Shown here: positions 60,356 through 63,586 of the stretch, piece by piece
How the letters are laid out: each line of letters starts with the position of its first letter
How positions within the stretch are numbered: position 1 is the stretch's first letter
DNA from: a phage
Length of the DNA: 64,000 bases
Assembly: GCA_012416205.1 (NCBI GenBank)
Contig: GCA_012416205.1_3033.2
Reading direction: 5' to 3' (one strand)
Notes under the pieces: model-generated
Told to the model about the DNA's origin: nothing
What the model saw: only the letters and a program-made list of their open reading frames with translations
The model's database searches: none
Translations under genes and position numbers: made by a program

Positions 60356-60991
60356 TCACAGTTCAGATGCTACAGCGATTACAGCTTCAATGTTTTCTGC
60401 TGAACGTTTAATGTCAAGATACACATTACCGTTTTTAGCGATTTTACATGACATTCCGATATCAGTAAATTTCTGAATATGATGTTCCATCATTTTGTAT
60501 CCAAAAATTCGCATATTTCCATTATTGTTAATTTCAAAATTACGAATTCCGTGAGTGCGTTTTTCTAAAATAGCGAGATAGTTACTGCGATAAGTTTCAA
60601 CCTTTTTAAGAACAAATCCATTTTCATCTAAAAGTTTTAACATGAAGTCTTTATCTTCTTCCATATCAGAAGTAATCTCACGAGCTTTACGAGTTGCTCG
60701 TTTTTTCAGCAGTTCCGGAGCATTTTCCTGCGCGTATAAAGTTGCTGCGTTTGAAATAATATCCTGAGCTTCACCTGTAATGATTAATCCATCACCAGAT
60801 TTCTCCACCAGGCCTTTTTTAATCAATACCCCAATATTACTATTAACTACTGCGTTACCTAAATCTGGATGCACCTCACGAACTTCTGCAGCTGTAATGA
60901 AATCTTTCTTAGCAATGGTAATTAAAATCGCAGCAGTTTTTTCATTCAGAACATCGTTAGAAGCTTTGATGATGTAAGTTACTTTAGACAT
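60356..60991 (-). CDS. motA: Middle transcription activator MotA
   Basis: 211 aa (T4 MotA length); located beside gene 52. Confidence 0.92.
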   Translation of the reverse strand: MSKVTYIIKASNDVLNEKTAAILITIAKKDFITAAEVREVHPDLGNAVVNSNIGVLIKKGLVEKSGDGLIITGEAQDIISNAATLYAQENAPELLKKRATRKAREITSDMEEDKDFMLKLLDENGFVLKKVETYRSNYLAILEKRTHGIRNFEINNNGNMRIFGYKMMEHHIQKFTDIGMSCKIAKNGNVYLDIKRSAENIEAVIAVASEL

Positions 60992-61032
60992 TTTCTAATC
61001 TCCGTAATTCTATATCAGTAGTTGATAGTTGT

Positions 61033-61113
61033 ATAGTACCACAGTATGCTTTGGTTGTAAACCGTTTTGTGAAAAAATTTTTGAAATAAAAAAGGGAGAG
61101 CCTCAGCTCTCCC
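61033..61113 (-). promoter_or_regulatory. Terminator hairpin plus early-promoter-like GTTTAC(18)TACTAT element upstream of motA (cassette copy B)
   Basis: Hairpin GGGAGAGC-CTCA-GCTCTCCC, T-run, AT-rich tract, GTTTAC and TACTAT; flanks near-identical to copy A at 44723-44804. Confidence 0.5.
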
Positions 61114-61118
61114 TAAAA

Positions 61119-61268
61119 TTACTGCATGACTGTGATAACTGTCATGATAACACGTTGAATTCCGAACGCAAGAAGACCTCCTGCTACGGCTGGAACAACA
61201 CCTAAACCCGCCAGTAAAATGCCACCGGATACTAATGCAGCGCTTGTAATACCAATTAATGGACTCAT
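61119..61268 (-). CDS. 49-aa hydrophobic glycine-rich membrane peptide (not in the supplied track)
   Basis: Own translation MSPLIGITSAALVSGGILLAGLGVVPAVAGGLLAFGIQRVIMTVITVMQ; ATGA overlap with the gene 52 stop. Confidence 0.4.
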   Translation of the reverse strand: MSPLIGITSAALVSGGILLAGLGVVPAVAGGLLAFGIQRVIMTVITVMQ

Positions 61269-62593
61269 TTGATTTCCTCTAAATCTTTAGTGTATTCTGT
61301 AACTACATCAGTAGTTTTCCAATATTCGTTTTCTTCTTTTTTAGCTTTAGCTTCTTCAGCAAGTTTCTTTGCTTCGTCGGAAGTCATATGAAAAATGTTC
61401 ATTCCAACTAGTTTATCAACATAAGAAGAATACATATCAATTTTAGAAAGTTCTTCGGTCAGTTCTTTACGAGTTTTACCTTGTACAACAATTTCACCTG
61501 AAATTACTTTCTTAATGAAATGTGCCTTGGCAAAGGCTAAACGAAATGCCGATTCAGTTTCTTTGATTTTGTTATCAATTCGTTTTTGGACATAAGTTTT
61601 ACGAACTTCAACGAAGTCTTTGATTAAATCAACTACGTTATCGTAAACTTGTAGTTTTCCTTTCTCATTAATAACGGTAATATTCTGGGAACGACGCTCA
61701 ATCAACCCGAAGTCTTTCATGATTTTTGCATGGCGTTCTTCTTCGTTATCGCTCAAAGAGTATTCTTTGCGGAATTTAATTTTAAAGCCAAAACCATGCT
61801 CACCACAAGCATCATCCCATGTAATGAAGCCTTTATCTTCAAGCGGGTCTAAGATTTTACTCACGTAAGTTTCACGATCATACTTATACGGAATCTCAGT
61901 GATATTCATTTGAGTTCGTGAAGTAAACTTGTACGTTCCACGAATTTCATATTGACCGTCAATTTCAACGACTTCACCACGAAATTCTGGGAATTCTACC
62001 TTCGGTTTAGTTACTTTCTTTCCTTGAAGAGCTTGTAATACAGCTTTCTTGACAGAAGAAACGCTATGAGGAAGAATGTAAGTTGCATAACCAGTTGCAA
62101 TACCGGAAACACCATTAAGAAGAACGGTAGGAATAATAGGCAAATAGAAAGCAGGCGGAATGTGTTCTTTATCTTGATGTACCGGAGCATATTCAATATC
62201 TTTATATACGTTATAGAAATTTTTACTTACACGAGCAAAAATATAACGACTTGCTGCTGCTTTTTGGACGGTACGAGAACCAAAGTTTCCTTGACCATCT
62301 AACAGAGGAAAGTTATTATTCCAAGTGTTAGCCATCAAAGCACCTGCGTCTTGCGCAGAGTTTTCACCATGATGATATCCAAGGTCCGCTACACCACCTG
62401 CAATAGAAGCGAGTTTATGAAATTTATCTTTATTTCCTCGTGCCAAATCAAGAGCTCGAGCAATAACAAATCGTTGAACTGGCTTAAATCCGTCAATCAT
62501 ATTTGGGATAGCACGATTTTCAACCGTGTACATAGCATAAGCCAGTGCTTCATTATCAATGATACTTTTTAAATCGCGATTATTCAGTTGCAT
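61265..62593 (-). CDS. 52: DNA topoisomerase II medium subunit gp52
   Basis: 442 aa (T4 gp52 length); type II topoisomerase GyrA-like N-terminal domain. Confidence 0.93.
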   Translation of the reverse strand: MQLNNRDLKSIIDNEALAYAMYTVENRAIPNMIDGFKPVQRFVIARALDLARGNKDKFHKLASIAGGVADLGYHHGENSAQDAGALMANTWNNNFPLLDGQGNFGSRTVQKAAASRYIFARVSKNFYNVYKDIEYAPVHQDKEHIPPAFYLPIIPTVLLNGVSGIATGYATYILPHSVSSVKKAVLQALQGKKVTKPKVEFPEFRGEVVEIDGQYEIRGTYKFTSRTQMNITEIPYKYDRETYVSKILDPLEDKGFITWDDACGEHGFGFKIKFRKEYSLSDNEEERHAKIMKDFGLIERRSQNITVINEKGKLQVYDNVVDLIKDFVEVRKTYVQKRIDNKIKETESAFRLAFAKAHFIKKVISGEIVVQGKTRKELTEELSKIDMYSSYVDKLVGMNIFHMTSDEAKKLAEEAKAKKEENEYWKTTDVVTEYTKDLEEIK

Positions 62594-62730
62594 AAATTTA
62601 CCATACTAGTGAATGTAGTGCCATAATAACATCAGAAATGAAAAGCACGATTTGAATTAATCCGAACATTACTCCATAATATAGTGCTACTAATAAAGTA
62701 GCAAGGGCTAATGAATAGCCCAAGATTTTC

Positions 62731-62889
62731 TTAATCATTAGTAGATAACAACACAAATGTTAAATATGCACACATACCCTGAGCTAAAGCTTGCGAAAAC
62801 ACACTGCTGACATCAATACAGATAGTTAAAACACATGCTACTATCCAACAAATAAATGAAATAACTCCTAATAATTTTGCGATATTCAT
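62731..62889 (-). CDS. Small membrane protein (Ac-like), paralogue 1
   Basis: 52 aa from MNIAKLLGV; hydrophobic with F-CW...C...T...SVF.QA.AQG pattern shared with the neighbouring ORF. Confidence 0.5.
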   Translation of the reverse strand: MNIAKLLGVISFICWIVACVLTICIDVSSVFSQALAQGMCAYLTFVLLSTND

Positions 62890-62899
62890 AATATTCTCC

Positions 62900-63055
62900 T
62901 CAACTATTTTTAGAACCAATGTACGCGAATAATGATAAAATCGCTAATACACCCTGAGCTGATGCTTGCAAAAATACTGAAGTTTCTCCAGTTATTACTG
63001 TTCCGATGCATAAAAAGAACCAACAGAAAAAGGCTATACCGTGAACAAATTTCAT
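62900..63055 (-). CDS. Small membrane protein (Ac-like), paralogue 2 (not in the supplied track)
   Basis: Own translation MKFVHGIAFFCWFFLCIGTVITGETSVFLQASAQGVLAILSLFAYIGSKNS (51 aa); same motif pattern as paralogue 1. Confidence 0.45.
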   Translation of the reverse strand: MKFVHGIAFFCWFFLCIGTVITGETSVFLQASAQGVLAILSLFAYIGSKNS

Positions 63056-63062
63056 ATTTTCC

Positions 63063-63143
63063 TCACTGGCGTCCGAAGACGCCTTTGGTTTTAAGATTGT
63101 TACGATAGAACTGCATCACATGTTCGTTATGGAAATTACTCAT
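63063..63143 (-). CDS. stp: Stp peptide (suppressor of three-prime phosphatase; anticodon nuclease activator)
   Basis: Own translation [26 protein letters not shown] (26 aa), matching the T4 Stp peptide as I recall it; TAATG overlap with the ndd stop; sits between ac-like genes and ndd as in T4. Confidence 0.8.
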
Positions 63144-63586
63144 TAATATGCCTGCAAAACAAATTTAAAGTTATCAGCCAACATACGGTTCATTTCTTCA
63201 AGTGTTTGATACTCAGAATGATGATTACGAGTAAACGCTAAAGCTAACTGACCTTTTCCAAATCCCGTCGTCAGAGGTTTCATCTTAGAAGCAGGAAGAT
63301 AAAATACAGTGTATGCCATATTGTTATTTGCAATAGTACGCGCAAGCTGAGACCGGCGTTGACGAATATGACTTAGAACTGCGCTGAATCCTTGCTTAGA
63401 ACGCTGATTACCCACATAAAATCGTGCGGATACGCATGAACCATCGAATTCATTTACTAAAAAGTAAAATCCAGGTTTAGATAAAATATCTTTATGCGGA
63501 GTTCCCAAAAACCACTCACCACCCTTGATTGTACCAATAACAGTAGCGCCTGCGTTGTTCAGATCAGTAACAGTCATGTATTTCAT
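63143..63586 (-). CDS. ndd: Nucleoid disruption protein Ndd (probable)
   Basis: 147 aa ORF in the T4 ndd position immediately upstream of stp. Confidence 0.65.

Follow-up and report, generated by a model that had tools for sequence, protein, structure and literature searches.

We found that an early gene block in a 64,000-nucleotide (nt) stretch of phage DNA (the window) carries two strongly diverged genes of the ac (acridine sensitivity) family side by side, where phage T4 has one. The first, AcA (62900..63055, minus strand; 51 amino acids [aa]), is an extra ac-family gene that has no T4 counterpart and is an allele of the type found in phage RB51. The second, AcB (62731..62889, minus strand; 52 aa), is the orthologue of T4 ac. 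At the ac locus, a cassette polymorphism with three states is set in nearly identical flanks: a phage may have only the T4 type, only the RB51 type, or both. All of the features analyzed here are on the minus strand of the window.

The window phage is a Tequatrovirus (T4-like), and the block is the standard early block ndd-stp-ac-52.1-52-motA.1. In the direction of transcription, the order is ndd, stp, AcA, AcB (ac), 52.1, 52, motA.1, a hairpin followed by a run of T residues, and motA. In the T4 reference record, the annotated order is likewise ndd, stp, ac, 52.1, 52, motA.1, motA, and this 2.8-kb stretch is 96-97% identical at the DNA level to many Tequatrovirus genomes. The sole departure from T4 is the second, RB51-type ac gene upstream of the T4-type ac. 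Gene families were assigned by scans against Pfam, PHROG, NCBIfam, PADLOC, Rfam, and PDB, and selection was estimated from pairwise Nei-Gojobori counts as the ratio of nonsynonymous to synonymous substitution rates (dN/dS). The curated families matched across the five short genes (stp, the two ac genes, 52.1, and motA.1) were PF08133, PF24129, phrog_2501, phrog_3487, and phrog_3595. We are confident of the identification of the genes and of the cassette structure. Much less certainty attaches to the mechanisms proposed below for Ac, 52.1, and MotA.1.

A preliminary description of this DNA had listed four short minus-strand open reading frames (ORFs) at 61119-61268 (49 aa), 62731-62889 (52 aa from the ATG), 62900-63055 (51 aa), and 63063-63143 (26 aa), and all four are present exactly as it gave them. 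Comparison with T4 ac, stp, and the neighboring ORFs, which it had proposed, identified the T4 counterparts stp, ac, 52.1, and motA.1. The layout needed correction in two places. The 49-aa ORF, said to lie between genes 52 and ndd, is actually downstream of gene 52, between 52 and motA. The three short genes listed between ndd and 52 are real, but a fourth, 52.1 (62598-62738, 46 aa), had been omitted. The genes were also said to have been missed by the ORF track. They are indeed absent from it because of its 60-aa length cut-off, but all of motA.1, 52.1, ac, and stp carry annotations in T4, as do both ac copies in close relatives. Each short ORF of the block is a genuine protein-coding gene catalogued before in T4 or close relatives.

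Two diverged ac genes in one locus

AcA and AcB are homologous. The preliminary description had called them two paralogous Ac-like peptides with a shared pattern, and we confirmed the pattern as F-x-C-W-x3-C-x2-T-x6-SVF-x-QA-x-AQG. Both peptides match the profile of phrog_2501 (E = 2.7e-24 for AcB, 62731-62889; E = 4.9e-26 for AcA, 62900-63055), and both genes are syntenic with T4 ac, between ndd/stp and 52.1. BLASTP aligned the two with 43% identity over 40 aa (E = 1e-9). Compositional bias was ruled out as the sole source of this similarity: 5000 shuffles that preserved composition gave local alignment scores of 23.3 ± 4.6, whereas the real pair scored 84 (z = 13.1), a value that no shuffle reached (0/5000). 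Every other pair of peptides from this hydrophobic set scored no differently from shuffled sequence. In a large protein collection with precomputed Pfam tags, relatives of Ac, including those of AcA, carry PF26944 and relatives of MotA.1 carry PF26886. Ac and MotA.1 had no match in our local copy of Pfam because these two models are newer than that copy.

AcB is the T4-type gene. It is identical to T4 Ac (51 aa, phrog_2501) at 49/51 residues, with one inserted Thr near the C-terminus (LLSTND) and the substitution A27V; this variant is still sensitive in phage PP01, according to a preprint on Ac (10.1101/2025.06.30.662393). The two genes share their length class, an 8-nt overlap with 52.1, and the functional residue G38. 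They differ in what precedes them. T4 ac is preceded by stp and has the Shine-Dalgarno sequence GAGGAA, whereas AcB is preceded by another ac gene and has GAGGAG.

AcA belongs to the "GETSVF" type, which is found in RB51, RB68, Ac3, and UFV-AREG1 and also in RB69 (Mosigvirus) and Klebsiella Jiaodavirus. It is 76% identical to the ac product of RB51 and RB68, 74% to that of the single ac gene of UFV-AREG1, and 68% to that of the single ac gene of pEC-M719-6WT.2. It is also 45% identical to the Ac of RB69 and of a Klebsiella Jiaodavirus phage (vB_KpnM_5N), but only 35% identical to the adjacent T4-type copy. The T4 type is the outlier of the family, with 23-40% identity to all other Ac proteins. 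AcA shares with the RB51-type genes the TGETSVF-QA-AQG motif, the place right after stp, and the Shine-Dalgarno sequence (its own is GAGGA, 7 nt after the stp stop). In those phages the RB51-type gene is the only ac gene, ends in ...KND, and overlaps the start of 52.1, whereas AcA ends in ...KNS at a new TGA and is followed by the T4-type ac. dN/dS was 0.15 for T4-type ac and ~0.42 for AcA.

We located the joint between the two types in a three-way alignment of the window, RB51, and T4. The window follows the RB51 arrangement as far as ...GGTTCTAAAAAT. A linker of 16 nt, AGTTGAGGAGAATATT (62890..62905, minus strand), leads from there into a complete T4-type ac, which is followed by the shared AATGATTAA/52.1 junction. 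The linker holds the last sense codon of AcA and its TGA stop, plus the GAGGAG Shine-Dalgarno of the T4-type ac. Because this Shine-Dalgarno (within 62890-62905) contains GGAG, the motif cut by the T4 endoribonuclease RegB, whereas that of ac in T4 is GAGGAA, regulation of the downstream copy might be different in phages that carry the tandem pair.

The three arrangements occur on a common background. Their flanks are 95-99% identical across phages, and one surveyed locus (L010) encodes a gp52 that is 100% identical to that of the window, yet is without the extra ac copy. Approximately 460 GenBank phage records have a T4-type Ac (at least 80% identity) and 91 have an AcA-type Ac. AcA is at least 95% identical in 48 GenBank phages, and the whole tandem interval is covered in 51 records. 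From ~460 T4-type, 91 AcA-type, and ~50 tandem records, we estimate that ~50 phages have both types, whereas ~410 have just the T4 type and ~40 just the RB51 type. PhiZZ6, pSs-1, and ECML-134 are examples of phages with the tandem pair. The extra ac cassette is found in ~1 in 10 sequenced relatives, and several GenBank records label both copies "acridine resistance protein".

The Ac family is small. An exhaustive search of 1.84 billion representative proteins with an Ac profile gave seven matches, six of them real (~50 aa, phage-like); the seventh, in a 2254-aa Ser/Ala/Thr-rich repeat protein, was rejected as spurious. With six real relatives in so large a set, the family is apparently restricted to T4-like phages. 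One 50-aa metagenomic protein, P0025, is an intermediate Ac that has TTGESRVFLQALSQG (TGES-VFLQA) together with the CAYLTF of the T4 type. Its identity to T4-type Ac is 52-57%, and nothing closer was found among GenBank phages.

The preliminary description had suggested tandem duplication and divergence. Homology and divergence are borne out, but a recent local duplication is not. Such an event should leave copies of high nucleotide identity that are mutually closest. AcA and AcB are 53% identical in nucleotide sequence and alike at 22/48 third codon positions (saturated), and in the matrix of identities they are not each other's closest relatives, which rules it out. Because AcA is nearer to the Ac of RB51, UFV-AREG1, RB69, and a Klebsiella phage, and because the flanks are shared, we take the pair to be an old divergence carried as a cassette polymorphism.

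Two histories could have given rise to this polymorphism. In the one that we think slightly likelier, ac would have been duplicated in tandem long ago in an ancestral Tequatrovirus, the copy nearer to 52.1 would then have diverged quickly to become the T4 type, and one or the other copy would later have been lost. Our slight preference for this history reflects the accelerated divergence of the T4 type, for which redundancy would account. In the other history, which we regard as a serious contender though somewhat short of an even chance, the copies diverged as orthologous alleles, each in its own phage lineage, until a co-infection brought them together by unequal or illegitimate recombination between a stp-acA-52.1 parent and a stp-acB-52.1 parent. 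The pair would then not come from duplication in place. Several observations fit assembly by recombination. The window consists of RB51-type sequence, a short linker, and T4-type sequence in shared flanks, and the high identity of those flanks in all three arrangements indicates that cassettes move on a common background. The tandem form is a minority (~50/550 records), and P0025 is intermediate, keeping the TGES-VFLQA motif at 52-57% identity to the T4 type. Modular shuffling of small ORFs is also documented in T4-type genomes (PMC2839356, PMC4122927). However, recombination alone would require that the T4 type fell to 23-40% identity with every other Ac without the relaxed constraint of a spare copy. 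In addition, the linker looks like a degenerate stp-stop/Shine-Dalgarno motif, the kind of trace expected from duplication of a unit, and the reverse order (T4 type upstream) was not seen in any phage.

Two points weigh against our preference for an old duplication with differential loss. The linker, at 16 nt, is too short to separate duplication from recombination, and it is similar to the stp/ac junction as well as to the ac/52.1 junction. In addition, the intermediate P0025 fits gradual allelic divergence as well as it fits duplication. Both histories, duplication with loss and allelic divergence with unequal recombination, are compatible with the data.

Predicted topology and action of Ac

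The hydropathy profiles of both Ac peptides (~50 aa) show two hydrophobic helices with a short acidic turn between them. In an AlphaFold2 model of AcA, the helices span residues 2-22 and 27-50 with the turn at GETS (predicted local distance difference test score [pLDDT], 76). Both copies have basic residues at the N-terminus, only AcA has them near the C-terminus as well, and an acidic residue lies in the turn. Helix 2 has a polar stripe at positions i, i+4, and i+8, followed by Gly: S26/Q30/Q34/G35 in AcA and S29/Q33/Q37/G38 in AcB. The Ser/Gln/Gln stripe is conserved across most of the family, and the functional Gly of the AQG motif is kept in both copies (G38 in the T4 type, G35 in AcA). 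The model of AcA and the charge distribution suggest that Ac may be an N-in/C-in two-helix hairpin in the inner membrane with its acidic turn outside. Sequence conservation further suggests a putative interaction surface made of the turn and the Ser-Gln-Gln-Gly stripe on helix 2, including the Gly that is altered in G38R.

What is described of T4 Ac fits this picture. The preprint (10.1101/2025.06.30.662393) likewise depicts two hydrophobic helices with a short acidic turn. It reports that loss of ac makes T4 resistant to acridine, that expression of T4 ac sensitizes E. coli to acriflavine and ampicillin, that G38R abolishes Ac function and gives acriflavine resistance, and that the C-terminal Thr insertion is functionally neutral. 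The Ac sample of that study consisted only of BLASTN hits of 93-100% identity; with such sampling the RB51 type would not have been encountered, so that the T4 type alone was examined.

Most probably, Ac would bind a host membrane component, and intracellular acridine would rise as a result. The preprint proposes interference with efflux by AcrAB-TolC, and the same action is assumed elsewhere (PMC13250531). In the literature, inhibition of AcrAB-TolC by Ac currently has the status of an unproven hypothesis. Three points weigh against it as an account of both copies. The preprint puts the mechanism forward as a hypothesis, with no interaction shown and no binding or efflux data. A search of the PDB with the Ac-family profile found no solved relative at E ≤ 10, and thus no detectable sequence similarity to AcrZ, a 49-aa E. 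coli peptide that binds AcrB. AcrZ chains are presumably among the solved chains, as structures of AcrABZ-TolC exist. Finally, the acridine-sensitizing role of AcA is a prediction from its sequence, and the dN/dS of AcA is higher than that of the neighboring genes. By analogy, Ac would resemble AcrZ in being a small inner-membrane peptide whose proposed target is the same pump. Apart from the lack of sequence similarity, AcrZ is a single helix, whereas Ac is predicted to be a two-helix hairpin, and the effect proposed for Ac is inhibitory, not modulatory.

In an alternative along the lines of the classical model of Silver, Ac would form small oligomeric pores or otherwise raise the permeability of the envelope to cationic dyes, rather than block efflux. 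On this view, two diverged copies would form hetero-oligomers or raise the dose. We think that this is possible but unlikely. The conserved polar stripe and Gly of helix 2 would suit association between helices in the membrane, but the stripe is equally suited to docking on a host membrane protein. The classical uptake interpretation is summarized in the preprint (10.1101/2025.06.30.662393), and sensitization to ampicillin fits a general change in permeability as well as it fits a block of efflux. However, the part of the preprint available to us describes no toxicity of Ac expression without drug. Viral titers were unaffected in an Ac-expressing host without acriflavine, and a drop in colony-forming units is described there only with acriflavine or ampicillin. 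Ac also matched no pore-former family, and no toxin, defense, or structural relative of it was found in Pfam, NCBIfam, or PADLOC, or in the PDB with the Ac profile.

Phage T6 is classically more sensitive to proflavine. RB51-type ac was considered as the cause of this sensitivity and was ruled out by the Ac of T6, which is identical to that of T4.

stp, 52.1, and motA.1

The 26-aa ORF is stp (63063..63143, minus strand), as the preliminary description had it. Its product is identical to T4 Stp at 26/26 residues, the N-proximal 18 included, and matches PF08133 (anticodon nuclease activator; 75.3 bits, cut-off 25) and phrog_6763. The gene lies directly after ndd (63143-63586, minus strand, from the ORF list), and its ATG overlaps the ndd stop codon (TAATG). 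It resembles annotated T4 stp in its 26 residues, in this overlap, and in its downstream neighbor, and differs from it by two synonymous nucleotide changes, with no detectable difference at the protein level. dN/dS was 0-0.16 against relatives. The role ascribed to Stp in PrrC activation is established: the soluble 26-mer inhibits type Ic restriction (EcoprrI, EcoR124I), thereby releasing the latent tRNA-Lys anticodon nuclease PrrC; this activity resides in the N-proximal 18 residues, and the phage counters PrrC with polynucleotide kinase and RNA ligase 1 (reviewed in PMC3014915). Judging from its sequence, Stp of the window would likewise inhibit type Ic restriction and unmask PrrC in prr+ hosts, as in T4.

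The 3' end of stp contains a GGCGUC-UUCG-GACGCC tetraloop hairpin (63068..63083, minus strand; -12.2 kcal/mol, z = -2.87), just before the Shine-Dalgarno sequence of the first ac gene. The hairpin encodes Stp residues GVFGR. Its stem is conserved in T4, RB51, and UFV-AREG1, so that conservation of the Stp C-terminus may partly reflect RNA structure. T6 Stp has a different 28-aa C-terminus, and the T6 sequence at the hairpin site must therefore differ. Upstream of stp, Ndd is 147 aa in the window compared to 151 aa in T4. A short internal segment around residues 45-55 is swapped (13 residues in the window, VSKLGGPFSNPCVSARF in T4) and the remainder is nearly identical. DNA identity in this stretch falls to 88-93% in several relatives.

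The omitted gene, 52.1 (62598..62738, minus strand), encodes a 46-aa hydrophobic peptide. Its ATG is inside the stop region of ac (ATGATTAA; 8-nt overlap), and it ends 5 nt before gene 52 (61265..62593, minus strand), which encodes the topoisomerase II medium subunit according to the ORF list and annotated relatives and has small genes on both sides. The peptide is identical to T4 gp52.1 at 44/46 residues and has the same coupling to the start of gene 52, with no notable difference. It matches DUF7396 (PF24129) over residues 1-46 of 46 (82.5 bits, cut-off 27), and nothing beyond DUF7396 was found in Pfam, NCBIfam, or PADLOC. dN/dS was 0.08-0.38 across genera, with dS up to 2.5. We also noted a promoter-like match inside 52.1 (62676-62704, minus strand), with TTGCTA and TATTAT separated by a 17-nt spacer. 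With an upstream element that resembles a MotA box (TGCT), this site is a possible middle promoter of gene 52, judged from the match to consensus only.

The 49-aa Gly/Ala-rich hydrophobic peptide is MotA.1, encoded by the last gene before the terminator (61119..61268, minus strand). The motA.1 start overlaps the gene 52 stop at an ATGA motif (61265-61268), an overlap that had already been noticed in the preliminary description. MotA.1 is identical to T4 MotA.1 at 47/49 residues, with the same coupling to the gene 52 stop and no notable difference. It matches phrog_3487 over residues 1-49 of 49 (E = 2.1e-29), the PF26886 tag is on 16/16 of its relatives, and it is at least 90% identical in 472 phage records. 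dN/dS was 0.01-0.36, and two divergent homologues had 17 synonymous differences and 1 nonsynonymous difference. The AlphaFold2 model is a single long helix (residues 3-48, pLDDT 90). The peptide has a grand average of hydropathy of 1.63, is 16% Gly and 12% Ala, and has small-xxx-small spacings (e.g., G23-A27-G31).

MotA.1 had been likened to toxin-like peptides. We consider it improbable that it is a membrane-active, toxin-like peptide that depolarizes or permeabilizes the host. Its small size, its composition and small-xxx-small spacing, the confident prediction of one long helix, and the early class of the T4 transcript would fit such a peptide. However, there was no toxin, bacteriocin, holin, or defense match at E ≤ 1 in Pfam, NCBIfam, or PADLOC, and the MotA.1 profile had only a chance-level match in the PDB (E = 1.1). 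The start of motA.1 is strictly tied to the stop codon of gene 52, which functions in replication, and in other genera unrelated hydrophobic mini-ORFs of 22-77 aa take its place, which argues for a position-linked role and not for a specific toxic activity. "Toxin-like" is a compositional impression only and is not supported. Our working guess is that 52.1 and MotA.1, small membrane peptides whose translation would be coupled with that of gene 52, are not toxins but takeover or exclusion factors that, like the products of the neighboring genes, target host components at the inner membrane.

Between motA.1 and motA (60356-60991) is an intrinsic terminator (61093..61114, minus strand) with a 9-bp stem and a T-run (-17.6 kcal/mol, z = -3.25) at the end of the ndd-to-motA.1 transcription block. 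The equivalent site of phage Aplg8 carries a terminator annotation. motA.1 is cut off from motA by this terminator and is coupled to gene 52 instead. Some close relatives (L010, L011, L019, and L002 were compared) have ~270-350 extra bases between the terminator and motA (window ~61000-61090). These are annotated as a 75-aa ORF in vB_SsoM_113 and are absent from the window, T4, and PhiZZ6. Name-driven mis-annotation is common in GenBank/NCBI records that match 61119-61268 and 62731-63055 of the window: MotA.1 is labeled "transcriptional regulator" or "flagellar motor protein MotA", Ac is labeled "naphthalene 1,2-dioxygenase" or "sugar ABC transporter permease", and Stp is often without annotation.

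The signals expected of translated genes are present throughout the block. Shine-Dalgarno sequences are found at normal spacing before motA.1 (GAGG), AcA (GAGGA), and AcB (GAGGAG), and stop and start codons overlap at three junctions (ndd/stp, TAATG; ac/52.1, ATGATTAA; 52/motA.1, ATGA). All five genes (stp, both ac genes, 52.1, and motA.1) are under purifying selection (dN/dS 0.0-0.43). In T4, the motA.1, 52.1, ac, and stp transcripts are of the early class (PMC9697503, Table S2). Against this, Ac, Stp, 52.1, and MotA.1 were not detected by mass spectrometry in the same T4 proteome study (Table S2; Class_P = NA). Ac and Stp are backed by classical genetics; with no protein detected in that study, it is evolutionary conservation only that argues for translation of 52.1 and MotA.1. 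A literature search found no ribosome-profiling study of T4 small proteins. Tiny hydrophobic peptides routinely escape shotgun proteomics.

It is very improbable that certain short ORFs, motA.1 and 52.1 in particular, are untranslated and owe their conservation to RNA or regulatory signals (the terminator, a gene 52 promoter, or mRNA structure). The undetected proteins, the terminator that abuts motA.1, and the sigma-70/MotA-box-like match inside 52.1 (62704-62676) could be read in this way. However, the substitutions are of the coding type (17 synonymous versus 1 nonsynonymous in MotA.1; dN/dS of 0.08-0.09 at dS 0.56-2.5 in 52.1), and reading frames and lengths are retained across genera. An RNA element as the explanation was also rejected on the Rfam scan, which gave two sub-threshold matches only and nothing above threshold.

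Small membrane-peptide genes around gene 52

We surveyed 41 viral loci anchored on gp52 (47-100% gp52 identity). Stp was recognized in 11/41 (Tequatrovirus loci and a group at 80-82% gp52 identity) and 52.1 in 23/41, with divergent 52.1 candidates ending in ...LIW at the same position in further loci. The gap between ndd and 52 is a changeable array of genes for hydrophobic peptides of 43-72 aa. Three families in this gap are absent from the window and T4. The first (57-72 aa) lies directly after ndd, ends in ...ER(L/I)..(C/T)G(V/L/I/F).(K/E/Q), and is also found in UFV-AREG1 and vB_KpnM_5N. Members of the second (51-54 aa) start with M..LVFIELI, and those of the third (43-49 aa) are weakly similar to Ac (E = 6e-4 to 8e-3). 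The three families are located at L005:947-1120, L009:1055-1210, L015-L035, L047, L049, and L050. This variability matches the modular shuffling of small ORFs known in T4-type genomes (PMC2839356, PMC4122927).

Small hydrophobic genes also recur on the other side of gene 52. An ORF for a hydrophobic peptide (22-77 aa) starts at, or not more than 7 nt from, the gene 52 stop in ~27/39 loci, compared to 29/247 of the other long-ORF ends in the same loci. These mini-ORFs usually start at an ATGA overlap. MotA.1 represents one of the sequence families among them, which number at least six and are unrelated. Exchangeable small membrane-peptide genes flank gene 52 across the Tevenvirinae. The recurrence of unrelated mini-ORFs at the gene 52 stop suggests a position-linked role for a small membrane peptide beside gene 52.

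It is conceivable, although we think it rather unlikely, that the small hydrophobic genes around gene 52 are a fast-evolving toolkit against host inner-membrane proteins, with the two Ac types directed at different targets. The toolkit may include the exchangeable array upstream (the Ac types, 52.1, and the further families) and the stop-coupled mini-ORF downstream (MotA.1 or its substitutes). If so, Ac types with different specificities (e.g., for different resistance-nodulation-division [RND] pumps or pump alleles) would broaden the range that is neutralized in a phage that carries both. More speculatively still, 52.1 and MotA.1 might tether the phage topoisomerase to the membrane or regulate it there, a function that would account for how strictly their translation is coupled to that of gene 52. 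A literature search found no support for a membrane link of the T4 topoisomerase subunits. The idea of such a link reportedly goes back to fractionation papers of the 1970s, and is unconfirmed and speculative.

As annotation, our results are routine. Five ORFs below 60 aa are confirmed as real T4-type genes, their number, order, and names are corrected, and all of the genes here are already known from T4 or close relatives. The interchangeable membrane mini-genes coupled to gene 52 are a pointer for work on small phage proteins and are not in themselves a discovery. The ac gene has been puzzling since the 1960s, and it exists as at least two strongly diverged types that are able to sit side by side. 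Natural phages with a single type or with both types, on nearly identical backgrounds, provide a ready test of action on AcrAB-TolC and of a difference in target between the two types.

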